64,000 nt of DNA, taken from assembly GCA_050084515.1 (NCBI GenBank), contig CM114271.1, positions 32,798,001 through 32,862,000 of the forward strand. Reading direction: 5' to 3'. A model generated the notes under the pieces. It was given only the letters and a program-made list of their open reading frames with translations, ran no database searches and was not told the origin of the DNA. This document shows, one piece after another, positions 1-50,289 of this stretch (within the stretch, counting starts at the first letter, position 1; the number at the start of each line of letters is the position of its first letter). The translations under genes and the position numbers were made by a program. Origin of the DNA: Blasia pusilla. Taxonomy: Eukaryota.

Positions 1-428
1 TTGCACATGTGTGAAATTCCCTTATCCAATATAGCTACAATGTAACAATTTAGAAAAAAATTTGATGAGTAGATGTTAATTAAAAGTGGGAGGATAACTT
101 GTGTTTAATCTGAATATAGTTGCAAAAAAATGGACAAGTTCGTCCCTAGGATGGACATGGACAGACATGGATTGCCAAAGGTGGGACCCACAATTATAGT
201 TCATGGTGGAAGGTAGGGCAAGGACGGGCGGGGCAATAAGGGTGGAGGGAGTGAAGGTGGGAGGAGGAAGAAACAAAAAAGTGTGGATCACGAATGCAAA
301 TAGAGGGGTGAGAAAGGAGGGGGAGATAGGGACCATGTGATCAAGTCTTCTATAAGACGCATCTAAATCCACGAATATGGTGATATGGATATGTTCGTGG
401 AAATCGACTTTTTCCATATGCAAACTTG
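1..428 (-). mobile_element. hAT-type MITE, probably cut at the window edge
   Basis: The right end TCCATATGCAAACTTG (reverse complement CAAGTTTGCATATGGA) resembles the TIR CAGGGTTGCACATGGA of the MITE at 10938. The window starts TTGCACATG, like the inside of that TIR. The spurious ORF 76..423 begins MHMEKV, like MHMDKV at 10943. Confidence 0.5.
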
Positions 429-559: not shown

Positions 560-1965
560 TCCTCCAAGTGGTGATTCACTTGAGCTTTCGTCAAGAAACT
601 TTTTTCCCACCAAGAAATAGTAGAGTTTAGTCATGTTTGGGAAGAGGTGTATTGGCTTCTTTATGGAAAAATCAAAATCATGAGGACATCCTTTGAAAGT
701 TTGTACTTGCAATGTTTTTAATAGGGATGGTCTTTAAACTCAACCAAAAATCCAGATTTTGAAGAGGCATTATGGGTGGTTGCTACATTGGGGATTGCAT
801 ATCCCACGACCAATCCAAGATTCCAAACTGGAAGTGAAGCACAGACTTAACTTCATGAAAGGCTCATGTTGAGATAAATGTTAGAGAATAATGAAAATGG
901 TGAAGTGATACATACATACCATTTGTAGTGAAATTTGGACCAAGTACCAAGAAAAGCCTCTTGTGAATATTTTGGTAGTACTTATGGGGGAGAATATTTC
1001 ATAGAGGCCATCCTTGCCATAGATATAATCAAGAATGAAAAATGAACTTCAAGACTAATCATTTGTTAGATTAGTGAGAGGGAACCAAAATTTTCTTTTC
1101 AATTTGTCACAAAAAATGCAAGAGTTTGCAAAGTTGGTAGGTTCTTTTGTTCGAGAAGTTCGTCTACTGTTTTTATGAGGAGATTGTGTTGCTCATAGAC
1201 TTTATTTGGTTTGTGAATATTTGGGGAGAATAGGATGTTTCATGAAATATTTTCTCAATGTGGAATATGGCGAAATTCATGAAAAATCACCATGCTTATT
1301 GTATGTTTTTGGACTTGTTCTCGTATAGGCTAATATTGCTTCTACCTTTGAAGGTTGAATTTATTGCTAATTAAAAAAAAATTAGTTGAGTTTATGAGCT
1401 TCAAAAATATTTAAACCATATAGTGATTTGTGATGAGTTCAAGCAATCCATTAGTATCCCAAATGGGAAAAATAATATTCGATGCTTATATTGGATGTTA
1501 AACATACACTTCTCATTTTTCACCATTACTTTGACATCCTACTTATATGAGTAGAAGCCTAGATGTTAAAGTAATCATAGTTATATGATGGAACTCGTTT
1601 ACATAGTAGATTGTTATAAGGATGACCTAATCCTATCTTGCATAAGAGTTTAGGACACCCTAATATGACGTGGGGATCCAAGGATGTAACCCTTGGTATG
1701 GTAAGACAACGTGGGGTTTGTTGTTATAGTGCCTAGAAAAAAAACTATGAATGGAATTAAAGATAATAGGTCAAATAACCAAAATTTCCCAACAATGAGA
1801 TGGTTGGGGAATTGTAGTGGTAGCACACATTTTGTTTGTCAAGTTTTCTTTATATTTAGGTTGCATTGACAATCTACTATGAGTGCACTGACAAACTAGG
1901 CCACTTTGTACTTTCAAGATATGTTATTTATTCAATGACTTGTTCACATTGTGTTTTATCAAGGG
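560..1965 (+). pseudogene. Decayed hAT transposase (DUF659-like core plus C-terminal dimerisation region)
   Basis: Frame-hopping translation gives HTICSEIWTKYQEKPLVNILVV (compare CTIMSDGWTD..RPLINFLV), GGEYFIEAILA, QFVTKNARVCK (compare QVVTDNASNCK) and NDLVHIVFY (compare LNDLVYI.YN), in the expected order. There are many stops and frameshifts. Confidence 0.7.
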
Positions 1966-2249
1966 CCTTTCTTCGAGTAAGGACGAACCTTCTAGGTGCG
2001 GTGATCATTGATGCAAGATCAATTTTCTAACAAGTGATTTCCTGTTCGGTATAAGATAATGACATATACCCTCCATTCCCTAACAATAGGGAATCACAAA
2101 TTTTTGTGTTGAGGCAATTACTTCCTTGCAGCAACTAACGCCAAAATTCCTAACTATGAAGTCATTGTAAAATACTTTATAATTTTACACCAAGAATATT
2201 ATACAAATGATATTGAAACCAACTCGAGGAGATCTATTTGCATCCATAA

Positions 2250-3253
2250 TGTCGCGCCCCTACTCTCCTTGAACGTCAATCTTTAGTGTTGAGGAAGCGT
2301 GCGTTCAGTAGGTCACGAACTCATCGCCGATCTACACCCAAACACGCACTCTCGTTAGTCGGGTTTGGCCAACCGGCGTTCCAACCCACCGAGTCCTCAA
2401 CTCGGCGTCTCATCAAGCTCAACCTTCCCTAGTTCCTAGCTTCCAACACATGGCAAGTCCTTCAAGACTTGGAACAGACTTTCTGGTTAGTCCAAGGATC
2501 TGAAACGGCACTTGCGCGCCTAGCGATCCCAACTGTTCAACGGTCCTCGGGTGAGTTCCGAATCGAAACCCAAGTAATTGAATCGCGGGGTGGAATCCAA
2601 GAGGGATGTCTAAAATCGCCTCACTGGACTTGGTGCAGGTTTTCCAACCCAACCCCCAAACTCGCGTTCCGTTCCATGCCCCTGAGCCGCCCTGCGGCGC
2701 CCAAAGTGGGGTTTGGGTTCCAAACACTCTCGGAGGCCTTCCCCCTTACTAGTACTTCTGGGGTTCTCCAATAACCCCTCCCCTTTGGGAAAAGAGGTTC
2801 GGGCCTTTCATTGTGGCCCTCAACCCGACTCCACTTACAGTCGTTTTTGGGTCGTATCTCGGCCACTGCTTATGCGTTTGCAGCGATCTTTGGTGCATTT
2901 GGACCGGCTCTCCATAAGCTTTCCAACGCATCCTTATTTGCTCCAAACGCATCTTGGAGCTAAAAGTTATGGCCATAAATACAGTCGGAAACTCTCAAAC
3001 GCTAGTGGCGGTCCAAATCCGGATCTTCCTTTTGGCAACCCACTTCCTAGACTCGACTTCTTTCAAGTCTCATTCCGCGTTTGGTCCAGGTTTCTGAGTC
3101 GCAACCATCACATCTGAAACGCGTGACTTCTCGCTCGCGTCTCGTCTCTTGTCTCCTCTTTGAGACAACTCCAACGCGCAAACCATCTTAGCGTGAGCCC
3201 GCTAATGTTCCGATGTTCCCCTTGGCACTTGTTTGGTCATGAGGGTAGCGACA
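2250..3253 (-). mobile_element. Solo LTR (1004 bp) with 5-bp TSD CATAA
   Basis: Ends are TGTCGC...GCGACA. CATAA lies at 2245-2249 and 3254-3258. It is GC/CpG-rich against an AT-rich background, and its reverse complement shares blocks with the LTR at 9679-10636. Confidence 0.9.
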
Positions 3254-3529
3254 CATAAGTTGCTAAATAAGCATATATAGCCTACAATGTGAAGGATTCT
3301 TAGGTAGCAATCGGTAGTATCACTTGCGTTGGTGATAAACCAATAAAATAAGCGTATAAACCAATATCTGTCTACGAAGAGAATTTCTTTATGGTATGGA
3401 TTAGAAAAGGGAATTCATGTACCACTTGTGCTCCATCCTATGTATGACTCTTAAACATGTTCCATCCTTCCTTTCTACACCTAATTCTATATGTGAAAGA
3501 GCAAAAGGTAGGGCTAGGATAACTAACTT

Positions 3530-5890
3530 GATACACAATGCTTGCGTCACATAGGTCCTCTTATCTCAAGCAGAATATTACGGCAAGAGCACGCATTGTC
3601 TACAAGCATGCAGTTCATCATACCAATCTTCATGCTAGAAACATTCATTCATTTTGGATCCATCTCTGAGCTATATATCCAAGTTGGAGATTGGGAAAAC
3701 CCTTTTTGGGATTATGAGTACTTAGCCTTGACTTAGAAATTGTGGCCCCATGAACCAAGAGAAAACATGTTGCGTATCGCACCAAAGTTGAAAGTAGGGC
3801 CTAAGAAAATATCTTTTAGCATAGCCCTAGAAATCTATGTCATAAGAATGATTGTGAAGAATTGGAACTATGTGATATACAACCTCGTTGTTGAGGATGC
3901 CTATGCTAATGTTACAAGGATTTATTTGGTTAGGATTTGAAAGTGGGTTGTATCTTTGAACCATCTCTCGTTGAAAAAAGCCTAGATTATCTTATTGCAT
4001 ATCTGAGATTAGATGCAAAACTATTAGATGTAGAAAATATAGATCCGGAATTAAGAACATGCACATATACTTATTGAGTTATGATGATAAGATTTTTGTT
4101 ACCAAGATAGTATCACATTTAAATCCGTTTGAGAATTGTATGTTTTTCATAAAGAATAAAAGATATGATTGAAAAATATGAATGTCTGACTCTTAATGAT
4201 TGCAAATGATTATGGATTTATAAACTATGGATGTATGATGCATCAGTATGACACCATTATTAAAATCTTTTCGCAACAACCTTTTCCTTTTGGATTTTGC
4301 TAGAAGATAACTTGAAGATGGATTTGGTGCCTTATGAAGACTATAGTCCTCATGACAAAGAAGATGACGGAAGAGGGGAAGAACCACACAATACATCAAG
4401 TTGGCCAATTTTTACCAATTGAAAGCGTATTTGGAAAACACCGTTGACAAAATGTTCTTGAAGGAAAGTTGAAGAAGTTGCAAATCAAATAGTTAGATTG
4501 TTTGTGATTGGTGATTTTGGAGCATAAAAGAAAGAAGATAATTGGAGGAAGAATTGGCCTTGTTTAGTGGCTTTGCAAGTTATGAGGATTTCCTTGCAAA
4601 CAAGAGAAAATGATAGAGGAAGGTATTTTTCAAGCTCAAAGTCATAGAGTTGATGAAGTAGATGGAGCTTTATTATGAAGATATGATGAATTGAGTTTCA
4701 AAAAGAGATAAGAGATCGTGAGTCGGAGATCAAAAATCTCCATTGTTGATGTAAAAATGACCAAGGCTTGGAACTTTGCCTAACTTTGGAAGTGCGAGCC
4801 CTTAACCATAATATCATCATCAACTTTCATCTTCCCGACTAGATGGAGGAGAGGAAGGAGGATTTCCGTCACAACATGTGATATCACACCAACACCACCA
4901 TTGTGTATTCTCGAGAGACCTTAGAAGCCTAGTTTCTTTGATGAATGGAAATAACGAAAATTAGCATAGTGAAGATAAGATAGATCACTCACATGAAAGT
5001 GAAGGTCCGGTCCAATTGAAAGTGGAGACAGATGAGGATGTTAAAGGTGTTTTGAGTGACCTAAATGCATGTCATAATATGAGTTTTAATAGATCTAGAG
5101 ATAATTACGATCACCGTATACATAGAAGCGCTAGTCCCAAAACCTATCATGGGGAGAATGCTTTGGATAATACCAAGCTTAGTTCTCGTCTATTACGAGA
5201 TTTTAGTAAAGAATTCACGACAAACTTTTGATTTGGAGGCCAAATTCAAATTTTTGAAATTGATTCTTAAGACTATGAAAGTCTACAGAGAGTAATGGAA
5301 AGGATTTAAAGACTCCATAGAAGACAAAGAGTAATGATGGTTAACCATGTGGAGAAATGGAGAAGGGCATATGAATCTATCATGGTGAGATGACAACAAG
5401 AAAAAGATGAGTTGCTACAATGAAAAGCAAGGGGCAACATGGGAGAACTCACACTTGAAACAACTTTGCACAAGGCTCATCTTCTGAAAAAGATTGATAT
5501 TATCCTATTTCAACCTATCAAGAATTTGCTCTATATGCAAGATGGGAGAATATAGTGGATCCCAACGCCGCCAACTATGCTTTAATAATGTTGGCACCAA
5601 TACCTCTCAATCCAACCATACAAGACTAGGATATGCCTAATTGGATAAGGATAATTGCCATAGAAGAAGGAGGGGTCCTTACGCTGAACAATTGGCCAAA
5701 ATGCATGATTTGCTTCAACCCAAATTCTCTAGGAAGTTACTATGTGACAAGCATATATAAGACATGTTACTTGCATCCATATTGTCTTCAAAGGGACATG
5801 TTACTATCATGAAGATTTATAACTTGTAGAAAATCTTGATCATGAATATTTTATCATATTTTTGGCATATCTTTTCGCGTGTCGGATAGT
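3530..5890 (+). pseudogene. Decayed kinase C-lobe, charged helical region and RING-like finger (copy 1 of an unclassified repeat)
   Basis: Kinase motifs: HHTNLHARNI (~3615, catalytic loop), VGDWE (DFG-like), RIAPKL (APE-like), IYVIRMIV (subdomain IX-like). RING-like motif CMIC..CYLHPYC..ITCRK at ~5700-5830. Collinear with the reverse complement of 46200-48300. Confidence 0.65.
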
Positions 5891-7799: not shown

Positions 7800-9590
7800 A
7801 GCATTTTTTGTTATCTTGTCCGGGTGTGTGCTCTAGACGTGAAATTTGAGCCCCTTCATCTTACAAGTATATGTAAGCTTTTTGAAAAAATTCAATGAAA
7901 ATGGAGGTGTAACAAAAATTCCAAAAATAGATAAATGTTTTTGGATCAGTGTGATCAAACCTTGTCACTAAATAGTGAAAGAGGATTTGTGAATTTTTCA
8001 TCTTATCCCAGTATATGATCTTCATACGAAGTTTGGATCACCCCATCATGAAAACGTATCTAAGCTCCTTGAAAATTTTCAATGAAAATGGAGGCGTAAC
8101 CAAAATCCTAAAAATATAGAAGTGTTTTTGGACCCATACAATTAAAACTTGCAAGCAAAGAGGATGTGTGTTTTTCATCTTGTCCTACAATATGATCTTG
8201 ACTTGAAATACGGGAACTTACATGAAAATCATCCCAAGTGTATTTAAAATCCTTGAAAAAAAATCAATCAAAACGAAAGTGGAATCCAAAGCTAAAGAAT
8301 ATATAGATTTTTTGGACACGTGCTATTAAACCTTATAAGAAAACAGGGTGTGTGTATTTTTCATCTTGTCCAAGTATATATGATCTTGACCTAAAATTTT
8401 AGGCCACTTCATCATCCAATTGTATATAAGATTTATGCATTTCAATGAAAATGGAGGTGTAACCAAACCCCGAAAAATATTTATAAGTCTTTTTGGACAC
8501 GCACAATCAAAGATTGAAAGAGGGTTTGTGCATTTTTCATCTATTCCAAGTATATGATCTTGCCTAAGGTTTAGGCCAATTAATCATCCAGGTGTATTTA
8601 AGCTTCCTGGAAATTTTCAATAGAAGTAAGTACAACCCAAAGCTAAAAAATGTACATGTGTTTTTGGACGGTTAAACCTTATAAGGGAGAAAGGTATATG
8701 CATTTTTTTTAATCTTATCCAAGTTTATGGTCTTAAGGTGAAATGTGTGCCCTTTCATCATCCATATGTATGTTTTCAGACTTGTGTGATTGAACCTTGT
8801 ATTGAAAGTCACTTCATCATCCAAGTGTATCTAGGGTCCTTCAAAAATTTTAAGGAAAATGGAAGTGCAACCCAAAACTAATATATATATATGTTTTTGG
8901 ACTCGCATAATTAAAAATTTTAAGGAAAATGTAAGTTCAACTCAAAGCTTAAGAGTATATAGGTTTTTTTGGACGCGTGCCATTAACCTTGCAATGGAAA
9001 AAGATTTGTGCATTTTTCAACTTGTCAAAGTATATGGTCTTGCCCTAAAATTTTGGAAACTTTATTATCCAATTTTATCTAATCTACACAAAAACATCTA
9101 TTATAATGGAGTTGGAATCAAAACCCTGGACAAAGATAAGTGTTTTTGGACTCACGTGATTAAACATTGTAAGGAAAGAGGTTGTATGCATTTTTCATCT
9201 TGTCAAAGTATATGATTTTGGAGCGAAATTGGGGATACTTTGTCATCCACGTGTATCAAAGCTATCTTTTAAATTTCAATGATGATGGAAATGCAACCCA
9301 AAGCTCAGAAATATATAGGTGCTTTTGGACGCGCGCAACTAAACGTGATTAAGAAAGATTGAAAGAGGATTTGTGCATTTTTCATTGTCCAAGTATATGA
9401 TCTTGACATGAAATTTAGGATCCTTCATCCTCCAATTGTATTTGATCTCCCTCAAGAATTTCAATAAAAATAGAGATATAACCAAAATCCCAAAAATATA
9501 TAAGTAATTTTGGATGGGCGTGATTCAATATCGTTACAAAAGAGGATGTATGCATTTTTCAACTTGTCCAAGGATAAGATCTTGATCTAT
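7800..9590. repeat. Degenerate tandem array, ~180-bp unit, about 10 copies
   Basis: The block AATGGAGGTGTAAC..AAAATAT..TTTTTGGAC..GCATTTTTCATCTTGTCCAAGTATATGATCTT recurs, with anchors near 7900, 8088, 8272, 8450, 8620, 8858, 9106, 9285 and 9469. Confidence 0.85.
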
Positions 9591-11244: not shown

Positions 11245-13171
11245 TCTTTATTCCACCACAAAATTTCCCCCGATTCAGGTTTAATAATTTATATTCTTAT
11301 TTCAAAATATATGAAAACCCTATATGAAGAACTGTTTGAGATAATGTTTAAAATTAAACCACCTTGCTCTTCCCTCATTTTCTAACACACATAATGATAG
11401 GAAGAAGAATTAGGAATAAAATTTAGAGTTAACCCAACAAAAGACAACTCCCAAAATTTCAAAAATAATGAAAAGTATCTCTTCCTAGGATTTTTTATCG
11501 GCATAAATGTAGGCTAACTTTGTTATATCCTTTTCACACCTAACGTCTCCTATCCTCAAATTTATGAAATATTTCGCATTCTTCAACAAGAGTATGCGTC
11601 ACATGGATGTGGTTGAATTTTGAGAGTCTTTGTATGGTATTATTGGCAAAGCTCTATGTTCTACAAAGTGAAGAAGGGTTTCATTGATGAAGGAAATCTC
11701 ATTTCAATAGGACTTAGGATTTCTATATATGAGGATTTGTCTCTGGTATTGGAATAGATTTTCATTATGACTGTATGAAGATAGATTTGTTGTGGTAGGT
11801 ATATATATTTTTACATCTTCTCTCGTTGCACTTAAAACTTATTCATGGCAGAGAAATTGGTTATTGAGTTGAAGAGGATATATTAACATTTCGAGGTATA
11901 TTGCAACTTTATGTTCTGGAAGTGTATTTTTTATTTCGGCAAGGGCCTAAATCTATGAAGAAGTCTACTTGGATTTTTTTACAATCAATGGAGGATAATA
12001 TGCATGATTATGAAGAAAGAAAATCATCCTTGCTAATGAGTTCTTCTATGTTTGTTAACTTAGTGTTTGGTTTTGTAATTTCCTACCCAATTCCCCCTAT
12101 GAGGGCCATAATTGATCCAAATGAGTATTAGTATTATTCACATTGATTTTTGAAGTGTGAAAAGTATGCAAATAAGTATACAATGACTTGTTATATATTG
12201 CTTATGTAGTGCATAGACAAAATTTTGTCAATAAGAAACTACAAAAAGAGGTTATACTAGAAGATGAAAGATAAGAATAAGAAAATATTTATAACATAAA
12301 GCAATAAGTATCAAATATATTTGCTAACAGAAACAATACATAGTATTAAAGACTAGATAGTGTAGAAATAAAGAAATTAAAAAATGATTAAAAAGGTCAA
12401 ACATAAGAATTGGAGAAGATAATTTCCGCTGGCTCTGTGTGTCTTTTATAAAACCACATAGACTATGTAATGAATAATAAGTGTTATGATTAATACAAAA
12501 AGATCTTGTGAGGAAGTAACTCATAAAGTGAATTATTCATGAATGAAGAAAAACCCCGAAAATTGTCTTTCTACATGTTTGATCTCTCTTGTATTAGGCC
12601 TTGCATGGCCCTTTTTTCCCAGGTAGCTCTGATGCATATTCTTGCAAAAGTCATGCCCTCTTCTCTTTGAGAAGCTATTTGTGTGATTTTTCAAGTTTGA
12701 TCCCTTTACCCTGGATAGTTCTAGATATGAGGATCTTTCACAACCCCTAATATGACCTCCGTGTGCCAAAAACCATTAAATGCTAAAAGACTCACATTGG
12801 CACCCGGTGTGAGTCTATGATTTGAGCCCCAACGCTTGAGTCGGATTGACCCTAGCATGTCACTCTAGCGAGTCTATCGCACATGGCCTTGCCTAGTGCC
12901 TAGCACATCACATTGGTGTTCCCCCCTTTCCCCCAAAGATGTGTTTCCAAAGATTGGTAACGCCTCCTCCAAACACCTCTTGATCGTTGCGCTCTAAAGG
13001 AGCACCGATGCCTCATCATCCATGTAGCCTTTGGCCACAACATTCATGTGGGGAGCTCACACTCTACACTTGGGCACCTCATCCATCACTCCACCCTTTA
13101 CTTGGCATCCCACAATTTTGACAACCATATAGTTGCCTTGTTGCAACACCCAAGGCCTTTCTTGTCGTCCT

Positions 13172-13495
13172 TGTCACTTCTTTTATAGCAAATCAACGAG
13201 GATCCGTATATTGCCTTTAGGAGGTAGGAAGACAACTTTAGGAGGTTGAGGATGACCTGTTGAGGACAAGAATTACCTGAGAGACCATGTTTCTTTTTTT
13301 TTGGCTCATTTTGAGCCATATTTAGGAATTTACTAAGGGGGATAAGTTCCTACTATGAGCATAGTTGGCTTTCAATTTCGAGAAGTGGCCCATGAGCCCC
13401 TATTGTAGATCAAGAGCCAAGGAGTCAACCTACGAGCATAGGTTACCAAGGAAAGAGTTTGGGGAGAGGGAAGCCGTATATCATGGGTGTTGACA
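13172..13495 (+). mobile_element. 324-bp solo terminal-repeat element related to repeat A of the Gypsy element at 17495
   Basis: Ends are TGTCA...TGACA with a perfect 4-bp TSD TCCT (13168-13171 and 13496-13499). It shares GGAGGTTGAGGATGACCTGTTGAGG, GGCTCATTTTGAGCCATATT, TCAAGAGCCAAGGAG and GGTTACCA with 17495-17795 and 25178-25475. Confidence 0.8.
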
Positions 13496-16305: not shown

Positions 16306-17494
16306 ATAATTTAACACTAATAAGAGGATAGATAATTTTCTCAGTAAGTTTTTCTCATTTATTATTCATCTGGATATTTATAAGTGTTTAAAATTGAAGC
16401 AAAGGGTTGGGCTATCTTTCTTAAATCACCCAGATTTATTCTTTTAAATATTCTTTTCCTAAAATTTTAAAATGAATTTTTTTCCAATTTTGAGTAGGGT
16501 CTTTGGTTTCACAAATTGCAATTATAAAAAGAATTCAAAATATTTTGAATTTTTTTCCAGAATAATTTAAAATTCATTATAGATAGATCCTAATATCTAT
16601 TCTAAATTTCTATGGGGAAGGGGATGGATGATAATATGAGATGGGAGACGAGGATGGTTTTTTGTAATTAAAAATTTGTAGACTCAATTTTTAATAACAT
16701 TTTCCAAATTTTCATTATTTTAATTGTAAATTTATCAATATTTACTTATCTATTTTGAAAATTTTAGGGGAGGGTTTGGCAGTTTTACGACATAATCCCA
16801 AATTAATATTATATATATTTTATTTAAAGAATTTAGAAACATAAAAAATGACCCGAATTGTAAGGTATAGAAATTTATGGCAAGAATTTATTTTAGAAAG
16901 TTAAGAAAATTGTATGCCGTTCAAGAATAAAGTGATTTTTAAAATTTTTCCTTGATTTTTAGGAGTTACATATTTTCTATTGATTACTAAATTATAGGGA
17001 AGAATTGGATTTACAATTTTTTCAATCAATCCCAGTTTATTCTTCTTTACTTTTTTTTCAGATTTAGTAATTTTGGAAAATATATGAACTCATGAAAGTT
17101 AAAAGAAAAATAATGCAAGTCCATAGTATTTTTTTTCGATTTCTTTGTTGAGTTTTAGAAGTTACAGTTTTCTTATTCTTTATTTTTGGTCATATATCTT
17201 CTTTCTACAATTGTCTTTTACTGAAAATTTTAGGGAAGGATTAAATTATTTCAAATAATCCCAAATTTTCTTAAAATTCAAAAATTAAAATTTTTAGTAG
17301 TACTTAAGGATAGGGAAAATTTGAGAAAGTAATATTAGAAAGTAAAAAAGTGATGATGCAGATTTCATATTTTCGGGGTTTAAGTATTTTTTGAACTTAT
17401 ATTTTCTTATTGATTCAAAATTATTCTTTCTATATCGGTCTTGGTTTAAGAGTTGGGTTTGGAAATTTTTAAATAATCCCAATTTATTCTACTT

Positions 17495-17776
17495 TGTCAC
17501 GACTGTTAGGATAGAGCGGTGGGATCTAGCAGAGCGTCTGCACAAGTAGTGGAGGACAGACCCAGGAGGTTGAGGCCCAAGGAAACATGAGAGAGTAGGT
17601 TTCCCCTTTGTTTCGGCTCATTTGGAGCCATATTGAAAAACATACTATTTTAGGTAAGTACCATTTTGAGCATATGATCACCTTTCTATTTTTGACAACT
17701 GGCCCTTGACCTCCTACATCAGGTCAAGAGCCAAGGAGGTGACTTGGGAGAATAAGTTACCATGGAGAGAGCTTGG
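17495..17776 (+). repeat. Repeat A1 (left terminus)
   Basis: Matches 25178-25475 with about 19 substitutions and two small indels by eye. Contains the hairpin GGCCCTTGACCT-8nt-AGGTCAAGAGCC. Confidence 0.95.
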
Positions 17777-19759
17777 GAGAGGGGAGGGGTATACCTCAAG
17801 GAGAGAGAGCTTGAGAGCTCATTCTCTCTTTGTTTAACCTCTTGGCATGAGGCGGTGGAGCTATGTGAGTGTAACCCAAGCCTCTCATTAGGAAGGTGGG
17901 TTTGATTTGACATGAGAGAGAGTGCATACCTTTGAGAGCTTTGGTGTGAGATGGTGTAGAGAGAGATTGGATCTTACTTTACAAAGAGAGAATGAGAGAG
18001 TGAGGGAGCTTTATGGGGAAGCCCGCTGGTCACTCGCTGTTTTTTCAGGTTGGGGACGATGTTCCCCATTCATCGGCTCATGGGAGTGCTCACCGGAGCA
18101 AGGGCTACTTTGATTGTTCTTTGCATTTGCCGATTTTTGGTGTGGAAGAGTGGCGCACGGAAGCGCTGCCCAATTTCTGATAGGGATTGATTATGGGGTC
18201 AGGTTGCCTCATGCTTGTGCTCTCGGGAGCACCATGTAGCTTGCTAATTTGTACTTTTACAGGTTTTACATTTTGGTTGGGAAAAATCAGCGTGGAAGCA
18301 CTGCCAGATTTTGTATAGGAGAAAGAGAATTGGGCTTTACGACATTCCCCTTCATTTTTACTTGAATGTTCAATTCCAAATATTTGTTGATGTCGTCCTA
18401 GATTGTGAAGCTGTGCACGTTGTGCAACAAACGATGTGCAATTTGGAGGTGGGAGTACAAAGTTATGGTCAATCTTGCAAAATTGCCATTGCTAGGCAAT
18501 TTTTAGGGTTAAATTGTTCAAACCCTAAACCAGCCGCCACGCTGACGGCGGCTGTCGCCGTCGCTGGTCAAAGATCAACCGTCACCGTCAATGGTCAACG
18601 GTCCTTCCTCACCATCAATGGTCAACCATCACCGTCAACGGTCCACCGTCCACCTGCCACCGTTAGCCGTTGCTATTGCCCTACATTGCTCACACCCGCA
18701 TTCGGCGGTTGTCCACCCTTTGGTTGTCGTTGTCGCCATTACGGAGTGGAGGGTCTTCCACAATGTTTGTTGATTCTCTGACTTGCGTCGCCACCGTCAT
18801 CGAAGTTTCGTCGTCAACCAGTGACGGCAGATGACCTCCGGTTATGGTGTTTGAGTTTTGATTTGATGCTGCTATGTTGTGATTGGTAGCCGCTTGACGA
18901 CGATTGAGTACCGTGCCGTGACGCCCGTAGCCGCAACGCGCCGTGTCGCTCATGGCCGCACCGCACCATCTCGATTGCACAGTCGCACCATCATTATGGG
19001 GCAGAGTGTGGGATTATTGTTGATTGAGGAGGGTAGGCCGCCGAGTGCTGCATCCCACCATCGAGGGTCGTACCGTTCGTAGCCATTCCGTGTTGCCTGT
19101 AACGCCGCACCGTTCCGCTGGAACCGCACTGTCTATCGAGGAGTTTTGAGCAGTGTCAGTACGGGAGGAGTATGACTTGCTGATTGGAGGAGTTGTGTCC
19201 AAGACCGAGTTGGGGTTGAGATTTGCAGTTGCTGAGGAGCGACATCGACATGTGTTTAGGTTACCCATTCAGGTCCTTTACCCTGCACGCGTGAGGGATT
19301 CTGGGTAGTTTATTTGGGGATATTGGGTTGTGTGGATGCTGAGAACATCATTTATGTATGTGGTTTAGGGGACATAGACCTGTGTGGGATGTCCCGAGTT
19401 GAGGGTAGGTTGTCGATGAGATGATAGCTTGGTCGATTTGCCGCACCACGCCGCTTGTTGCCGCACGTTACACGTCTCGGGGAGGGAGAGTGTAGATCGT
19501 GCCGCATGTTTGGGATGAGTGATTGAGGGATTACCCGCAAGGTTGAGAGTGATCGTGTGAGAGGGACACGAGGGCCATCACGGCGTCTTTTCTGGATTTG
19601 AGAGGCGAGGTAGTGGACCTGAGAGTAGCTCTGGAGGGTTTATCCGGAGTGGTGCAAGGTTTCAAGAGTCTCCACTTGAGAGACCACCTCGATCTCCTTC
19701 TGTGTCATCTTCAAACGAGGGGGAGTGTGTAGAGAAGTTTATGAGCATATCGCCACACA

Positions 19760-20850
19760 TTGTGAGTGGCTACCAGTTGGGTGTACGAGATGGACGATCG
19801 GGGTAGAGGACCGCGTAGGTTTTCGGGTGCAGTAGGCATGATTGAGTTGCACAATTTCATAGCAGAGTTTAGGAGTTGGTGCGACTCCCAGCGGGCCAAG
19901 AACTCTAGAGAGTTCAACCCGTTTACAGCATGGAACGGTATGTTCCAACATTAGAGGGGGCGCCCATGGACGATTACCATGAGTTCTCTTAGAGATATGC
20001 ATGTGAGATCGAGGCGTGGAGGCTCTACTATGACCCACATTATGTGTCATGAACGGATCCGTTCCCAGATGAGGAGGAGGAGTCAGGAGAGGCTACTTCC
20101 TCTTCCACTAGTGATGTTTTAGGAGGGGTCACTCGCACGAGAGTAGTTGCACCGTCTAGTCAGGTTCATCCCAGGTTCAACCCTGTGGTTAAGTTCTTTT
20201 CTGAGTTGAGGGCGAGCTACCAGGAGGTACGGACAGAGAAGTTGCGGAGCATCCAAGACTACTAGAGGCACACGGGTGAGAGTTTGCGTGAGGCTTACAC
20301 TCGCTTGCGTCGGTTGATCAACGTCACTCAGGGGGTGACAAAGGCTCAGGCTATCCAATCATGGTACGCGATGCTGGACCGGACCCTACGGACACGGGTG
20401 CGGGATGGGGTGCTTCTTATGAACACCTCCCCTACGTTGAGAGATGTTTTTAGGACCACCAAGAACATTGAGCGCAACATGGTGGAGGAGAGCGTAGCCA
20501 CCATGGGGTCTGGGCGATAGCAATCACAATTGCCTGCACTACCTGTGCAACAACGTGGACTCCGAGATAGGTCGACTGTGGCACCACGAGCTCAGGGAGG
20601 ATACCGGGGGGCCGTGCCACAGAGACGTGCGCCTTCCTATGCGGCTCAGCAACAACCGCATACTATTACTTTTTGGTCATGTGGTAGAGCCCATCATCAG
20701 CGCGATTGCACTCGTTAGGGTCATGGACGTGTGCCTCAGCATGGAGGAGGAGTTGGTGCTGCACCAGGAGGTTATCAGTGTAACTATTGTCAGAGGTATG
20801 GTCATACACGCGCCACGTGTTTCAGTTTACATCTTGAGTTATATCCGGAC
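19760..20850 (+). pseudogene. gag: Gag with two zinc knuckles, disrupted
   Basis: Capsid-like segments IELHNFIAEFRSWCD and REAYTRLRRLI. Knuckles WSCGRAHHQRDC and CNYCQRYGHTRATC. In-frame stops are present. Confidence 0.8.
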
Positions 20851-21699
20851 CGAGGGCCAGGGAGGGCACTAGAGCAAGTAGCCGGTCCGGGTGGGCTAGA
20901 GATCTTGCACTAGGTGGTCCTGTTGGGGGACGAGGAGCTGGAGTTGCCCGACATGGTGGTGGAGGTGCCCATGGAGGAGGTAGAGTACCACCATCTAGAC
21001 ACGCTGAGGGAGACGCTGTACGTGAGGCTGGGATGGCTCCTCAGATATAGCAGCTACAGAGTAAATTGCCGTTATGGCATTGAGGTTACCCAATGCTGGA
21101 TCCGTGACATCGACATCATATGGAGCAGCCAAAGATATGGAGGATCCTGGTTGGATGTGCGGGGTTGCCCATGGAGGCAGCCGCAATTGTGACGCATGGA
21201 GCAGCTGCAGAGTTGGATCCACAATGAGGGGAAGCCAGGAAACACACTAGGCTTTCTCAATCTCTCATGTTGTCTGAGGCGAAGAGGACCCCATCGATGG
21301 GTCTTGATCAAAGTTCCTGGAGAGTTGGTGATGTTGTTGGTGTGCAGACACAGAGGGCGATGGGAGAAGCGAGTACAAAGATTCCTATTGTTGATGCTCA
21401 GGAGGGGCATGTGTCGAGCATGTTGTTGGGGGCGGCCATCGTTGTGTACCGCACTCCTTTATTTTCTGCTTTCGATGTTATGACGTTCGGGGGTACGCCC
21501 CCGGAGGCTTTTCGGCTGGCCGCTACGCTATGTGAGTGTGGAGTTGGAGTTCTTGCATCACATTCAGAGGTGATTGTAGAGGAGGTGATGGACTTGCCCT
21601 AGGAGCGGATGCTCGGGCCGTCCACTTCAGGTTCATGGCAGGCTGCGGCTACTAGGATGGCGGAGATGCCGCTAGACCAGCGATAGAGCGTGCCATGGC

Positions 21700-24600
21700 T
21701 TCTCATGGTGTTGTGTTGCTGGATAACCGAGGAGCGGTCTTCCAATTGGTAAGTCCTTGAGGTAGAGCTTTTAGTCTGTAGCGCGTCTTCTTGGATTCAG
21801 GAGCGCAACCCCTGATGTAGGGGAAAGAGTCATTCAGAGGATTGGGCTTAACGAGAGCCGATGTGGAGCGTTGTCCATTCTGGATACAGACATCCTTGGG
21901 TGGAGTGAGTACCACACAGTATATCACCCAACAGGAGGTCGTGGTGAGGATTCGCCCAAGATATCCCACAGATGAGTCCGTGGTGCGAGCCAAGGCGATA
22001 GTGACTGATGCAGAGTCCTACAACGTCTTGGTTGGTGGAGCAGTGTTATATCCGATGGGGTTTTCCCTCGATTACTGGGAGGAGTCAGCGTCCTACAAAC
22101 CAGGATGGCACTCAGGTGATGGGCGCCTTAGCTCATTACCCGTTCGATTCACATGTGTAGTGATCGAACAACAGCCAAGAGAGATGGCGACCTTAGCAGC
22201 ATTTAGTAGTGCCATCATTTGGCATAGTGATTTGATTGAGGGACATGTCCATGCAGAGGATACTCCCGTTCCTGACACTTCTATGGATAGGGCTTTGATT
22301 CAGAGTAGGAGCCAGGACTTGGTCGGAGCACGACTAGTGGAGATGACGCATGGGGAGTATGCACCTACGACAGTCATGCCCGCCAAGAAGGATATGCATG
22401 GCAACTGGACGGATAGGCGGATGTGTGGGGATTACCGACCTATCAAACGGCAGACGAAGTCCAATAGGTATGCCATGCCCAGCCCTGAGGAGATCTTTGA
22501 TGCGATTGGTCACACAAAGGTTTTCAATTCATTGGATTTGCGAGCCGGATACCATCAACTGCCAATCAGATTGGAGGACACGCAGAAGACGGCATTTTGG
22601 GGCATCGATCCTCACGGGAAGGATTGTTTGTACCAGTGGCGGTTCTCACCATTTGGGTTAAAAACGCCCCGGCTGAGTTTTAGAGTGTCATGGATAGGAT
22701 CTTGGCTGGTCTGGATTTTTCTAGGTGTTATATTGATGACATTGTAGTCTTTAGCACCACGGTTGAGGAGCATGACCGACATCTAGAGGAGATGTTTCGA
22801 CGATTGTAATTACATGGGTTGAAGCTACATCCAGGCAAGTGCAAGTTCTTCTACAACCAGATTGAGTACTTGGGTCATACGATATACCCAAGGGGCCTTG
22901 GTGTTCAATAGACAAAGGTAGAGGCTATCTCACGCATTCCACGCCCTACAGATGTGAGCCTTTTTCGCGCATTCATGGGATTGGCGAACTTCTATCGGCG
23001 GTACGTCAAGGGATTCAGTTTGATTGCGAAGCCTCTGACCTTGCTGACCAAGGTGGATCACGAGTGGCACTGGGGGGATGAGTAGGAGTGAGCATTTCAG
23101 TTGCTCAAGGATAGGTTGACGTCCGCGCCCATCTTGAGGAGACCGATCACAGGGCGTCCTTTCTAGTTGCACACAGATTGGAGCATGTTGGGGCTTGGAG
23201 CGGTGCTCACCCAGCATGATGATGAGGGTAGAGAGTTTGTGGTGGCTTACGCTAGCTACTCAAACAATGTTGTAGAGGCAAAGTATAGCTCTTATGAGGG
23301 TGAGTGCTTGGCTGCAGTGTGGGCTGTCGCGCATTTTAGGTGTTACTTGTTCGGCAACCCCTTGAAGTGGTTGATGGAGTCCGACAAGCTTACAGGGAAG
23401 CTTACAAGATGGGCTCTATTGTTGCAAGAGTATGATTTTAAGGTGGTACATAGACCTGGGACGCTCAACCAAGATGCAGATGAGTTGAGTCGTAACCCAT
23501 GCCCGAGTCAGCGAGATGCGACTGGAGCTCGATGGCATGGGTGTGTTTTGAGGGTTTGGGAGGATGGTAGAGTATGCGTAGTGCCGCATCCTTTGCAGAG
23601 ATCATGACTAGTGCAGCATGCCCACGAGGAGTTGGGTCACTTTGGGGTGAAGTGGATATACAACTTGCTCCAGATTCAGTATTAGTGGCGAGGCATGCAG
23701 ACTGATGTTCAATAGTTTGTTGCCAGGTGCATGGTGTATGATCGGGTCCGAGCATCGTTCAATGCTCTGACTCCACAGTTGCATCCATTACCGATCATGG
23801 GCTTACGGTATAGATGGAGTTTGAATTTTTCATGACCTTTGCCTTTGACAGAGCGTCACAATCGTTATGTGTTGGTGATGGTCAAACACTTCTCCAAGTG
23901 GATCGAGTTGGTTGCATTGCTTGACAAAGTGAGTGAGGGAGTAGCTTATGCCTTCCTTGACAGAGTGCTGAGTCATTATGGCACACCGGCTGAGGTGTTG
24001 ACAGACCAGGGTTCCGAGTTTTGCGATGAGTTCCAGGCCTTGTGTGATCAGGCGTTGATCGACTACCGCACGACTTCGCGAGATCATCCCGAGGCAGATG
24101 GATTAGTGGAGAGAGTTGTGCAGATGGTGAAGAGGGGTTTACACAAGTATGTCTTGGAGAGAGGTCACCTAGGAGATTGGGACCTCTAGTTGCCATGGTT
24201 GGCGATGGGATACAGATTCAGCAGGCAACCATCCTTAGCATCTTTTTCATCGTACTTGCTACTTTATGGCGGAGAGCCATATTTACCTGCGGCCATTCGT
24301 CGAGATGCTGGTGAGGTGCTGGACCTTGATGACCCAGATATATGGATGCGAGCATGTTCTCGGAGGGCAGAGCTGTTTTGGAGAGTGATGCCCATGGCGT
24401 TCGAGAACTTGGCGATTGCGCAACATTGGGATACGTTGAGGTATGCGACTATTCGGGATGGTGGTTATCGACCAACTATCTGGAGGTTTCATCCGGGAGA
24501 TTATGTCTACTTGCAACAGATGGCACCGACGACGTTGGATGTGACTGTAGGGCGCACTATCTTGAGAATGGTTGATGCTTTTCCATTCGGTGTTATCTTG

Positions 24601-24861
24601 TTGGAGGGACGCGATGGTATGGTATGGAAGGACCATGTGCGTAATCGTGCGCCATGTCACCTTCCTAACATTGATGGTATAGTAGATCCGAGCTCAACAA
24701 TAGTTCTTATAGGCTTGCGTTGTATGTTGTGTGGTTTTGCTCGTGGTGCGGCCACGATGCTAGTCTGTGATGGATGTTTTAGAGGTTGCCGTATGGCATG
24801 TCTCACGCCACCTCTCACTAGGGTTCCTCGGGGACGATGGATGTGTCCAAGATATACATAG
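21700..24861 (+). pseudogene. pol: Pol: aspartic protease, RT, RNase H, DDE integrase and PHD finger, disrupted
   Basis: Protease VFLDSGAQP (~21785). RT RMCGDYR, LDLRAGYHQ, PFGLKN and YIDD (~22730). RNase H TDWSMLGLGAVL and YSSYEGECLA. Integrase HEELGHFG, LTDQGSEF and HPEADGLVER. PHD CMLC..CDGC..MAC..WMCPR. Confidence 0.95.
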
Positions 24862-25046
24862 AGGAGATTCTAGGTAGGTTTCGATTCCAACTTTTTCTGT
24901 GACATGGATGACAGGAAGGGGACTAACGATGGGGCCACATGAGAGCCCGGCCTTTCTGCTCTTAGCATCGTAGAGATGTGTCTTGTGGTAGGTAGGGATA
25001 GAGGGCTATTTGGAGTTAGAGAGACCTAACCACCAGCTAGGGGGAT

Positions 25047-25175
25047 GATTGGAGATATTTTGGTACTTCTCGCCTCTGTATATGGATGCCATGAGTTAAC
25101 ATGGGATCGTGTGTGTTTGTGTGTGTGTTCGATGACAGCGATGTGTGTTGTGTAGCGATGTGTATGCGTATGACA
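25047..25175 (+). repeat. Repeat B1 (internal copy of the right terminus)
   Basis: Matches 25475-25603 with about 10 substitutions in 128 nt. Ends TGACA and is preceded by a short purine run AGGGGGA (25039-25045). Confidence 0.95.
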
Positions 25176-25177
25176 AC

Positions 25178-25603
25178 TGTCACGAATGTTGGGATAGATC
25201 GGTGGGATCTAGCAGAGCGTCTGCACGAGTAGTGGAGGACAGGCCTAGGAGGTCGAGGATGGCCTGTTGAGGCCCAGGGAAACCTAAGAGAGCAGGTTTC
25301 CCCTTCGTTTCGGCTCATTTGGAGCCATATTGAAAAAAACTTACTATTTTAGGTAAGTACCATTTTGAACATATGATCGACTTTATATTTTTGGCAAGTG
25401 GCCCTTGACCTCCTACATCAGGTCAAGAGCCAAGGAGGTGACTTGGGAGAATAGGTTACCATGGAGAGAGCTTGGATTGGAGATATTTTGGTACTTCTCG
25501 CCTCTGTGTATGGATGCCATGAGTTAGCATGGGATTGTGTGTGTTTGTGTGTGTGTTCGATGACAGTGATGTATGTTGTGTAGCGATGTGTAAACGCACG
25601 ATA
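25178..25603 (+). repeat. Repeats A2 (25178-25475) and B2 (25476-25603)
   Basis: A2 restarts TGTCACG two nucleotides (AC) after B1 and joins B2 directly at GAGCTTGG|ATTGGAG. Confidence 0.95.
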
Positions 25604-25632
25604 ACTTAAAGTTTTCTCTTGTTTCAAATAAA

Positions 25633-26061
25633 CTAGTATGCGACCCTGATTTTGGGTTTCGATAGTTGGAGATAGGGTTTGGATAGGTGCAAACCTAACA
25701 TGGGATGGAAACATATAAGCATAGAAAAGTAATACGGCATGGAGTAACAAGAAATAATGGGAGTAAAAAGCAGTGGAGTATGAGAGAGAATGGAGTTACA
25801 CGACACGAGAACAAAGCTTCGCGGCATGGCATAACATAAGTTAAAAGGATAACATAAGAGGAGTTATACGGCATGGAATCACTAAGGTTTGGAAGGTGGT
25901 AACACAATGGATGGTCGGAAAATCATTCACATGGCACGGCGTAACATGATAGTCGAAACGCATTGATGGCAACGGAGAGTCCAAACGCATTAGCACAACG
26001 CAAGCGAGACAACTTGAGAAGCACATTAAAAGCTCACATTAAGAGGAGTGTAAGAGAGAGA
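25633..26061 (-). mobile_element. Small non-autonomous Helitron-like element (429 bp)
   Basis: On the minus strand it starts A|TCTCTCTCTTACACTCCTCTTAATGTGAG and ends ACCCAAAATCAGGGTCGCATACTAG|T: TC start, CTAG end, AT target site, weak hairpin. TAATGTGAG is shared with the 5' end of the element at 30632. Confidence 0.5.
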
Positions 26062-41484: not shown

Positions 41485-41732
41485 GGGTATAATGCTGTAG
41501 AACAAGTCAGACGGACTCGTCGTTGTAACCATACACAGTAATGCTAGCTAAATGTCAAAAATGCATCATCAGGGGTAATCCCTAGAAATACACCGAATAG
41601 TATACAGACATGTACAAGACATATTGATCCTATCTCTACTCGTACGGTGGTACCTGTGGCAGATAGTTGCAGAAGATCCGACTTTGTGGTAGTATGTGCC
41701 GACCGCTTCCCTCTCCGGGACGTGTGAAATAG
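41485..41732 (+). repeat. Dispersed repeat, probably part of an LTR; second copy at ~50430-50647
   Basis: GGGTATAAT..TGTAGAACAAGTC..TTGTAACCATA..AATGTCAAAA..GAAGATCC.ACTTTGTGGTAGTAT.TGCCGA..TGTGAAATAGA is present in both places. Confidence 0.75.
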
Positions 41733-42501
41733 AATCTGTTACCTGTATACTACGCATTTATGTCCCTGAGACAGAAATACAGACACCAAAGCGAGCTCGC
41801 GCTCCTCAAACGTGCGCAAAAAGTTGAAACCGATCTCGTCCATCCAAACGATCGCTCTACACTATACGAATACGAGGATAGTACCATCGTCGTCCATGGA
41901 CGGCGAGTAAGATAGAAAAAGAAGTAGAAGGAATGACAAAAGAAGTAAAAGGAATTGAAAAGGCCCGTATAAAAAAATTTGGTCACATGAAACTTGCGGA
42001 CGAATTCTTCTAGATTTTAAAGTCCAGAAGAACCTGCTGCTTACCTTATGCCAAGAAGTAATAGAAGAAGAGGAAAATGATGCACTTCGATAAAAACCCA
42101 TCGGAAGTACAAAAGAGGGGGACTCAAAGAGTCAAAACCTGAAGGCCACAACAAGACCAGAAAAGGAAGAAGGGGGCATTCACTTATAGAAGTAATAGAA
42201 GAAACCGAGGTACATGTAGCTATGTTGATGGAAGCACTATTTTAGAAAATCATTCTTCATTACGAGTGCATCAAGTGAATTGAATATATGGTTGGATCCG
42301 CTAGCACCACATTCATTAAAAAAAAAACAACCTTGGGTTGTTGCCTAAGGTAGGAGGATTGATTTTTATGATGTTTTGAGATCTAACACATGTCCCTAAA
42401 ACTTACATTTTGACATGACGCCCCATCTTAATATGAAAAAAAAATTATTCAGAGTTATCATAAGAGGGACACCAGGGCACCTTTCTAGTACATAATAGGG
42501 A

Positions 42502-42956
42502 TGTCAAAGATCCTCCTATCAGGGGATTCTTGGGCACCTAGAATTGGCCCAACGGGCTTTCCCCGGCTTAGAAACGGGTACCTCCTCCACTTCCCGTTTT
42601 AAAGCTCCGAAGTCCCCACTCCTCTTTTCTCCAAGTCTCGGAAAATTAAATGTGTAAGATATTAAATTCAACATACGATCATCAAAATCCAAACTATATA
42701 GAGTGTCCACACAAAACAAGATAATACGATATCAAAAGCCACATAAGGACTATCAACCATCGTGAGGTGACACATCAAGGCCATCCTACATGAATTGACA
42801 CGTTCATTTCCCATGAACCTCAAGATTAAGTCTTAACTCCAAACACTACCCTAATAAGATAAGACCATCACCTAATGTTATGGAATCCTTAAATAAATAA
42901 ATCACCACCACGAAGACCAGACGGCGTCCAAGTCTTCTTGCACATCCCCCTCAACT
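42502..42956 (-). mobile_element. Putative 3' LTR (42502-42944) preceded by a polypurine tract
   Basis: The minus strand reads AGTTGAGGGGGA|TGTGCAAGA...TCTTTGACA (imperfect inverted ends), with an internal CTCTATATAG. Confidence 0.5.
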
Positions 42957-45689: not shown

Positions 45690-46198
45690 AGGCAAATGCA
45701 TCCCAGCATAGCACCATCTCCTTAACTCTCTTCATGCTATTGAGCTCATATGTTGTCTCTCAAACTTGGGCATGGGTTTTGAATCAATCCATCTACATCC
45801 TGCTTCACCGGACTTGGCCTATGAACCACATGAAATTCATACTCCTATAGTAATAGAGCCCACCTTGCAAGGTCCATGTAAGCTTGTGAAAATCCATCAA
45901 CCACCTCAACAATTGATGATCAACGATGAGCATGAAAGCGTTCTCGAATAGCTACCACCTGAAATGTGCCATAGCCCCCACTCCAACTAAGGATTTTACC
46001 TCTACTTGTCATTTCTTTGAGTAAGGACTGCTCCTAGACCCAATATGCTCCAATCTATTCCTAACTGGCATAGAATGGACCATCCCTAATAAGTCTTTGT
46101 AAAATGGAGGAGGACGTCAACCTTTCCATGAGCTCCTGATTATCTACCCAACACCACACCTAATCAAGCTATTTAAATATTTTGAAGACTTTGCAACG
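45690..46198 (-). pseudogene. Gypsy RNase H fragment related to the element at 17495
   Basis: The reverse complement gives DWSILGLGAVLTQ, AHFRW*LF and LARWALLL*EYEFHVVHRP..NPCPS, collinear with 23020-23540. Confidence 0.8.
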
Positions 46199-46199
46199 T

Positions 46200-48950: not shown

Positions 48951-49881
48951 TAAGCGGGAAAACCGGTCTAGCCATGCCTCTCTTAGAGCCATATTAAAGT
49001 CATTCCTCGAATCAACTCTTTGCCTCTTGGCACTATCATTGGACTCCATTTGGTTATTTCTTGCTCCCTATGACTCAGCCCCACTAAATATATATCTTGG
49101 AAGAAGAAGATAGGAAGATTTCCTACTTAACCAACGAAAGAAATCTAAAGGTGGAGATTAACAAACGTATAGCAACTGGCGATGCTATAATAATGGCTCG
49201 GTGAATGTACATAGGCGCGGATGACGGAATCAAGGATTTGTGTTTAGGGTTAAGCACTCAAAGGGAATATATACACTCTTAGTTAAGTTTCCTTGATCAT
49301 TTCCATATCCCCAATGTGCTAAGGAAAGCCAATGAAAAAAATCTAAACTTGAGACCGTGAATCGAAAATCTCAAAATTACCAAAAAAAGTTTAGTGCCAC
49401 AAGAAAATTCCACACTCACAACCTCTCAAATATGGAATAAATTAGAGTTTGGTTAAGATACAACAAGGAGCGCAAATATCCAAGTTGGTCACAAACAAAA
49501 TCTAGTTATCCCCAAAGGCACGCAACGGATTTCCCCAAAATTCATCGCAACCTTGAAAGCCCTTAGCTCTCAAGGCACCAATGAAATTTAGGGCCTAACC
49601 CAAAAATAATCGTACTCTCAAAGAAAAGGAGGAAAAACATGAAGAATGGAGGAAAGTGTGATTTACTTAGACCATAATCATCCCCTTATGAGCATTTTGG
49701 GCCCCACTTATGGACCCTTTGCTTGTGGGTTTATGTTTCAAACCCATTTTAGAAGTTAGTAAGTTCAAACTTTGCTTCCACCAATCAAACCCCGCCACAT
49801 GTGCTCATAGGATTGGTAAAACGGGGGCCAATTGGGGGCTTGGAGGACAAGTACAACTGTGCCACGTGGCAAGCTAGGATT

Positions 49882-50205
49882 CAAGGATTGGACACGGGCT
49901 AGGCGCGGGCCTCTTGCACTCTTGACGTGGACTTGGTGCGACAAATTGGGGTGGTCCGGGATGCGGACTCAACTCGTCCGCGACGCGGGAGCCAACAGGC
50001 ATGACGTCGAATGGCAGGGATGAGATGCGAGCTACCCGAGCAAGGGTGGAATGTTCGGTCTGTGTGGGCCCGAGTGAGGGCTGCGGATATCCGAGCTGGA
50101 GAAGCCCACACCTTGGCCTGCATGGACATATCTATCCTTGGGACAGACATAACTCCACGAACACGAACATGTCCGCAGGTTGGTCTTTGTCGGCATACAA
50201 CCTTG
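49882..50205. mobile_element. Third, more diverged hAT-type MITE
   Basis: The reverse complement of 50100-50205 resembles 10938-11040 (CAAGGTTG..GACA, AAGGAT.GATAT.TCC.TGCAG). The TSD is not convincing. Confidence 0.5.
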
Positions 50206-50289
50206 GTAAGAAAAGTAATCGTATGATCGATGAGAAAGAGATAAGGTAGATTCAATCTTATTGGTCTTGATGTAAGGGTAAGAGATCAC

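Follow-up and report, generated by a model that had tools for sequence, protein, structure and literature searches.

Retrotransposons are usually sorted by their ends and by the enzyme that inserts them: long terminal repeat (LTR) elements pair direct repeats with DDE integrases, and tyrosine recombinases go with the inverted or split direct repeats of DIRS elements, according to the relevant passages of PMC8557442. The split arrangement A1-int-B1-A2-B2, in which int is the internal region, is given as a DIRS-type layout there and in the legend of Fig. 1e of PMC5890265, and a passage of PMC9940879 counts TOC1 of Chlamydomonas, whose LTRs are unusually arranged, as a nonautonomous DIRS element. 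A literature search for DDE Gypsy elements with split repeats found only PMC5890265 (de Mendoza et al. 2018), to which the supplementary figures of that paper and the additional files of REXdb may add detail. The element in question, KnitGypsy-Dnmt3 of the alga Klebsormidium nitens, is labeled "DIRS-like repeats, Gypsy domains" in the legend of Fig. 4c, and the main text gives no primer-binding site (PBS), polypurine tract (PPT), junction, duplication, or mechanism for it. A check on DGLT-A yielded nothing on its LTRs. Here, we analyze an element of this kind in the liverwort Blasia pusilla, located at 17495-25603 of a 64,000-nucleotide stretch (assembly GCA_050084515.1, contig CM114271.1, positions 32,798,001 to 32,862,000 of the forward strand), which we call the window. 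It is a Ty3/Gypsy element with a DDE integrase and the repeat layout of DIRS-type elements, and this permuted layout is a trait of its family, not an accident of one copy.

Self-comparison of the window reproduces the layout that the original prediction had read from the sequence, with all parts on the plus strand. A1 begins with TGTCAC at 17495 and is followed by the internal region. B1 (25048..25175), the 5' part of the replicative LTR, terminates in TGACA and is separated by the 2-nt spacer AC (25176..25177) from A2 (25178..25475), so that two inverted ends abut as GACA-AC-TGTC. B2 (25476..25603) is the right insertion end and terminates in CGATA, which is the TGACA of B1 altered by C>T. 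A1 (17495-17776) and A2 are 88.3% identical over 298 columns, and the estimate of about 19 substitutions agrees with the 19 counted, to which a 16-nt indel is added; B1, taken from 25047 or 25048, and B2 are 92 to 96% identical. Nothing B-like was found after A1, as had been claimed. The element has inverted TG..CA-type termini, TGTCA...TGACA, and the sequence ACTT bounds the whole unit on both flanks (17491..17494 and 25604..25607), as a 4-bp target-site duplication. Ngaro, PAT, and DIRS elements are not known to make a target duplication. The split direct repeats of DIRS order are present in the window element and its relatives, and integrated copies do not have two complete direct LTRs at both ends as in Gypsy elements; they have A on the left and, on the right, B-NN-A-B or a lone B, where NN is the 2-nt spacer.

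The extent of A is defined by whole-genome reads labeled as Blasia pusilla and placed on 17300-25800 with at least 85% likeness. The commonest joint leads from 17980 to 25476 (246 + 254 reads), followed by joints from 17981 to 25476 (83 + 73 reads) and from 17980 to 25048 (50 + 40 reads), indicating that A of most copies reaches 17980, where it is joined to B. The same A|B joint is found in contigs of two studies and is crossed by 9 RNA reads. A1 had been drawn to 17776; this part is indeed repeated in A2, but the true A of the family extends to 17980 (A1, 17495..17980). A2 of the window copy is therefore short by the last 204 nt of A, which hold the TATA, the repeated region (R), and the unique 5' region (U5), and TTGG stands on either side of the missing segment. 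The supposed leader at 17777-17980 is the TATA-R-U5 part of A, with the TATA at 17790-17793 and a predicted R-U5 at 17818-17980. Elsewhere in the window, a related family is represented by a truncated A-like piece (13171-13480, 72% to A) that reaches into the equivalent of 17777-17800, which fits an A going beyond 17776. Read depth is 660 to 2430 in bins of the element versus about 30 in a bin of mostly 5' flank, and RNA reads come chiefly from one strand (first mate on minus, 9 to 160 versus 0.75 to 12.6), which is the sense strand if the libraries are of the usual stranded type. The family is abundant and transcribed in this species.

The internal region is of Gypsy type and heavily decayed. 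Relatives from metagenome contigs, designated here by locus numbers, include the intact element L030, and comparison with it by tblastn locates a gag-like region at 20170..20874 (ORF1 residues 225-447, 24% identity, E 1e-9; ORF, open reading frame) and a protease region at 21668..22264 (ORF1 residues 671-865). Reverse transcriptase (RT) with RNase H (22178..23541) and an integrase with a C-terminal PHD finger (23530..24852; rve core at 23836-24189, PHD at about 24721-24852) are recognized by both Pfam and tblastn. The tblastn order of protease, RT, RNase H, and integrase is that of a Gypsy pol, and Pfam finds RVT_1 (weak, E 0.0014, below the cut-off), RT_RNaseH, rve, and the PHD finger in this order among 10 ORF pieces. 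The tyrosine recombinase domain Phage_integrase has no match in these 10 pieces, so the assignment of a DDE integrase with no visible tyrosine recombinase holds. Many stops and frameshifts interrupt the pol, and a single in-frame stop lies in the integrase region (24187-24189). The window copy differs from family reads at 849 places by C>T and at 902 by G>A, with other kinds of change at 45 to 247 (17300-25800, one read set); such an excess would be expected of an old silenced copy whose methylated cytosines have been deaminated.

In L030, ORF1 (976-5085) encodes gag, protease, and a DNA methylase, and ORF2 encodes RT, RNase H, integrase, and PHD finger, with the Pfam domains RVT_1, RT_RNaseH, Integrase_H2C2, rve, and PHD. 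The methylase domain (PF00145) covers ORF1 residues 940-1086 (E 1.8e-13), with LFAGIGTG, PCQ, and ENV motifs visible. No tyrosine recombinase (Phage_integrase) was matched in the 7 scanned of the 15 L030 ORFs of at least 90 amino acids. A C5 DNA methyltransferase sits between protease and RT in L030, L006, L026, and L051. This segment is absent from the window copy, where residues 866-1369 of L030 ORF1 match nothing by tblastn. Reads with loose ends at 22282/22291 (834 before 22282 and 1201 after 22291) continue there into other sequence, and most copies in the species may hold an extra segment at this place, where relatives have the methyltransferase. A second set of loose ends is found at 23540/23544 (1623 reads on one side and 958 on the other), where most copies have sequence not present in the window copy, and residues 515-592 of L030 ORF2 are unmatched near the same point; the window copy has lost about 230 bp here, ahead of the zinc-binding domain of the integrase. 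At both places the loose ends agree closely among reads.

What lineage does this element belong to? The integrase-PHD piece has its best named matches in Marchantia polymorpha (70 to 72%), with others in Calypogeia and Sphagnum, and several of its relatives contain a C5 DNA-methylase domain. Relatives of L030 ORF2 include methylase-bearing proteins of K. nitens, Closterium, and Marchantia, among them K. nitens P0062 (RT, RNase H, DNA methylase, and integrase), which is 47% identical to L030 ORF2. An integrase tree of 42 rows, made by a quick search with Shimodaira-Hasegawa-like approximate likelihood ratio test (SH-aLRT) support only and without named Tf1, Tcn1, or REXdb references, groups the window integrase with Marchantia proteins (SH-aLRT 98), inside a 25-row clade (SH-aLRT 98) that contains P0062 and the methyltransferase-bearing rows of Closterium. 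Chromodomain-bearing Gypsy proteins are separated by a branch with a support of 100, and a PHD finger takes the place of the chromodomain at the C terminus of the integrase. The window element belongs to a streptophyte Ty3/Gypsy lineage with RT, RNase H, DDE integrase, and PHD finger and, in many relatives, a methyltransferase; the copy itself is decayed and has internal deletions. Judged by its domains, P0062 is probably a copy of KnitGypsy-Dnmt3, and the lineage of the window appears to be the same as, or sister to, that of KnitGypsy-Dnmt3. Both combine Gypsy domains with DIRS-like repeats, and relatives of the window element also carry the methylase PF00145; the window copy differs in having no methyltransferase and in residing in a liverwort genome. 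The layout had already been noticed once in an alga, and the window element adds to this barely described kind a decayed member of liverwort type that lacks the methylase. What is new is its anatomy, in which a PPT precedes B, a self-priming PBS follows A, A contains TATA and R, and the abutted ends are palindromic, together with its 4-bp duplications, the occurrence of repeat-less and fold-back insertions, and the proposed reading of integrase sites inside the LTR.

Whether the layout recurs in independent insertions was examined in metagenome contigs. Of 600 pattern matches in the scan, 391 were related stretches, and the analysis covered the best 80, with forms called by self-BLAST and by BLAST searches that used A and B of four families (window, L026, L051, and L074). 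The form of the window element, A1-int-B1-NN-A2-B2 (form 2), is found at 17 loci with 9 distinct 3' flanks, and these 9 distinct B1-NN-A2-B2 ends are spread over three relative families. At three more loci, B1-NN-A2 is interrupted by the contig end. A repeat-less form, A-int-B (form 1), is found at 30 loci with 25 distinct flanks, one of them (L031/L043) a deletion derivative. A fold-back form, B1-NN-A2-PBS-inverted A (form 3), occurs at 3 loci with 2 distinct flanks. One locus has a truncated B1, and 26 received no call: 19 with a contig end at most 400 nt from the integrase match and 7 of other families, with PPT-B-ACA-NN-TGT-A visible by eye in two of these seven (L030 and L076). The A|B joint is exact in eight of nine distinct copies, with one additional G in L052, and the base following A is identical before the leader and before B in all three families in which both contexts are known. 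The fold-back copies (L001 1283-1798, L009 3361-3878, and L013 1412-1929) have A2, a 12-nt PBS, and then inverted A (168..1) ending exactly at inverted TGTCATGACC; the flanks of L001 differ from those of L009 and L013, so two independent insertions are represented. At L068 (1628-1928, an L074-type family), B1 is directly joined to an inverted A piece (positions 136-259), an irregular right end.

These insertions carry duplications of their own. Of 10 copies with both ends, the window included, 7 have a perfect 4-bp target-site duplication. The complete A..B-NN-A-B arrangement is seen in L026, L047, L051/L053, and the window, and its duplications differ (ACTT in the window, CATA in L026, and TTTG in L051/L053), which is the outcome that the original prediction had named as support. 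Form 1 copies have TGTT (L006), TACA (L024), ACTA (L014), and ATTA (L057); L007 (three of four bases), L063, and L049 have no perfect duplication. Among 14 distinct A-leader 5' ends, B is found neither before A nor between A and the leader, and relatives with two ordinary LTRs, the case that was to speak against a Gypsy lineage with noncanonical ends, were not found among them. The observation is confirmed and its interpretation supported, the same layout being present in independent relatives.

The priming signals have unusual positions. The PPT AGGGGGATG (25039..25047, with the purine run AGGGGGA at 25039-25045) lies directly before B1. The original prediction was right that none precedes A2, where the sequence is GT-rich, and had missed the one before B1. 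A G-run PPT adjoins the 5' side of B1 in the families of the window, L026, L051, L074, L030, and L076, with AGGGGGGCG, AGGGGGGC, and GGGGGGGG as the sequences of other families. No tRNA-type PBS follows A. A site complementary to a segment in the middle of A is found there instead: in the window, ACAAAGAGAGAATGAG (17981..17996), directly after A1, is perfectly complementary over 16 nt to CTCATTCTCTCTTTGT (17818..17833), the predicted transcript 5' end and self-primer, and about 2e-6 such matches would be expected by chance for 14 nt. In relatives, the first nucleotides after A are exactly complementary to mid-A over 12 nt (L006), 13 nt (L051 and L049), and 16 nt (L030). The self-primer sequences vary among four families with the pairing preserved, a covariation, and the duplex energy is reached by 2 of 300 shuffles for L051 and by 0 of 300 for L030. 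When 12 elements were tested for an exact match at the homologous mid-A site, complementarity of at least 10 nt was found in 5 (L006, L037, L057, L051, and L049). An end of A at 17776 was tried for the window and rejected: no exact match of at least 7 nt joins leader and A in that case, and the duplex energy is reached by 7% of shuffles. The shift of the end to 17980 by the read joints recovers the complementarity. In the window, L006, L051, and L030, the paired segment is preceded by a TATA at a distance of 26 to 31 nt. Together, complementarity after A and TATA spacing form the sequence signature of Tf1-type self-priming, with a predicted transcript start.

The part of PMC6317226 that treats self-priming gives it as reported for Tf1/Sushi and as predicted for plant Tcn1. 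As in those elements, the window lineage has no tRNA-type PBS and has a post-LTR site complementary to the transcript start, here a predicted one; unlike them, described with paired LTRs and a chromodomain, it has permuted repeats and a PHD finger. The PPT before B1 and the PBS after A1 imply that the working LTR is B-NN-A, which is whole only once in each integrated copy. Within this LTR, the inverted ends of B and A abut in the near-palindrome GACA-NN-TGTC. The spacer is GC, which makes a perfect 10-bp palindrome, in most copies of the L026 and L074 families and in L076, and the variants AC (as in the window), TC, AA, and GT also occur.

These features suggest a scheme of replication and integration. 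Transcription would start about 28 nt past the TATA inside A, and the first 12 to 16 nt of the RNA would fold onto the site just after A and prime the minus strand, as in Tf1-type self-priming. The G-run PPT directly before B1 would prime the plus strand, and the product of reverse transcription would be [B-NN-A]-PBS-gag-pol-PPT-[B-NN-A]. The tips of such a complementary DNA (cDNA), the start of B and the end of A, would not be TG..CA, and the ends presumably recognized by the integrase, 5'-TGTCA... and ...TGACA-3', would abut inside the LTR. All insertions begin with TGTCA, end with TGACA, and have a 4-bp duplication; we infer from this that the DDE integrase acts at the internal junction. 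Use of the A start of the left LTR and the B end of the right LTR would yield form 1, A-int-B, which lacks a 3' R and is expected to be incapable of replication. To replicate again, a copy would need an intact 3' B-NN-A, so the right-hand cut would have to fall beyond B-NN-A. Form 3 could arise from a plus strand whose end is A-PBS: folding of that end onto the complementary start of R, followed by extension, would produce copies with a PBS and an inverted A. As a whole, the scheme, with a replicative LTR B-NN-A, integrase ends abutting inside it, and permuted integrated copies, is in our judgment probable. We hold more tentatively the further proposition that the integrase sites moved from the cDNA tips to a palindrome in the LTR and that replication-competent copies arise only from longer-than-unit cDNA, either a circle or a run-on plus strand; it may well prove wrong.

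A DDE enzyme acting on abutted ends has precedents. In bacterial circle junctions of the IS3/IS30 type (IS, insertion sequence), the enzyme acts on abutted inverted ends 2 to 3 bp apart; those elements, unlike the window lineage, are DNA only, with no reverse transcription, and the likeness lies in a DDE enzyme on abutted ends. Retroviral integrases cut palindromic LTR-LTR junctions in foamy virus and HIV-1, as documented in PMC1180852 and PMC1905944. There, too, two ends recognized by an integrase abut as an inverted repeat that is cut internally; retroviruses form this junction between two LTRs and in circles only, whereas the window lineage has one in every LTR, with a 2-nt spacer.

How is the extra B of form 2 made? 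Form 2 requires an A joined to a second B, and two routes could provide it: the plus strand might switch template end to end, from the A end to the B start, or a ligated two-LTR circle might be opened at one junction. The circle could in principle account for more than the extra B, with the integrase opening two-LTR circles at one of two palindromic junctions and one-LTR circles giving A-int-B. The layout is exactly that of a circle with the LTR B-NN-A opened at the PBS-side junction, integrase cleavage of circle junctions is documented (PMC1180852 and PMC1905944), and the A|B joint is precise in eight of nine distinct copies. However, the mirror product A-B-NN-A-int-B should then appear about as often, and it is found at none of the 14 distinct 5' ends, 5 of which come from copies bearing B-NN-A (roughly, p 0.03). 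Moreover, the fold-back form cannot derive from a circle, and the identical base after A in three of three families fits a strand switch guided by 1 nt at least as well. As an account of the whole permuted biology, the circle is therefore doubtful. For the extra B alone, we lean toward the template switch, given the unseen mirror form and the shared base after A, and consider it a little better than an even prospect; circle opening would be the less probable of the two and still a serious candidate.

Several points weigh against the proposed scheme. No circle or extended cDNA has been observed, and the missing mirror product weakens the circle route. The commonest form in the metagenomes, A-int-B (24 to 25 distinct versus 9), cannot replicate under the scheme; these copies may be dead on arrival or later B1 × B2 deletions, neither of which we favor. 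A2 of the window copy has neither R nor U5, so no complete 3' LTR is displayed there. In the 12-element test, complementarity extends over 9 nt in L014 and over 7 nt in L047, lies at a different site in L026 and L070, and is absent in L024, in L063, and in the window if A is ended at 17776. The mapping of RNA and DNA reads listed no transcript start or poly(A) site. Finally, the relatives are metagenome contigs, and short-read assembly can misjoin repeats; an A1/A2 identity of 87 to 94% argues against repeat collapse in assembly.

A rival view takes the locus for a one-off, in which template switching, tandem insertion, recombination, or misassembly has rearranged a canonical two-LTR Gypsy copy. 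The window copy is old and damaged, with many stops and the loss of 204 nt in A2, and most family reads differ from it at 22282/22291 and 23540/23544. Yet four families have the same layout at independent loci whose duplications differ, hundreds of reads and contigs of two studies from the species of the window contain the A|B joint, and no canonical copy was found among the 14 distinct 5' ends, so a one-off origin is very improbable. We give equally little credence to DIRS/Ngaro-like movement by a tyrosine recombinase acting in trans, with the DDE integrase irrelevant to the end structure: the window lineage does share with Ngaro, PAT, and DIRS elements the split direct repeats A1-int-B1-A2-B2 of an LTR element opened inside its LTR, but those elements encode the recombinase (PMC8557442 and PMC5890265, in the passages on layout), whereas here the ORFs scanned in the window and in L030 hold none, 7 of 10 complete copies have 4-bp duplications, the ends are TG..CA inverted, and the integrase ORF of L030 is conserved and intact (zinc-binding, rve, and PHD).

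Other repeats are present in the window. A second, older Gypsy-like element lies on the minus strand (41485-50647), with pol similarity of 69 to 74% to the RNase H region of the window element at 45733-46139 and a single weak repeat pair (41485-41733 and 50431-50647, 70%); a reading of its ends revealed no recognizable B-NN-A junction. A tandem array of 30-nt units (58334-58583; six overlapping 100-nt copies) and repeats spaced roughly 185 nt apart (7816-9584) are unrelated to the element.

The lineage of the window element breaks the textbook pairing of split repeats with tyrosine recombinases and of paired LTRs with DDE integrases. Tools that search for LTR pairs by adjacent duplication, PBS, and PPT misdelimit the A..B-A-B form and are blind to the repeat-less A-int-B form, implying that such elements are probably underannotated in bryophyte and charophyte genomes. 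The conserved TATA, self-primer, PPT, and abutted ends offer a testable scheme for a retroviral-type integrase working from an internal site. If the more tentative proposition on moved integrase sites and longer-than-unit cDNA is true, this lineage would be a natural DDE-integrase retroelement whose productive substrate is other than the plain linear two-LTR cDNA, and the split-repeat layout of DIRS and Ngaro elements would be set by where the LTR is opened, not by the type of recombinase.

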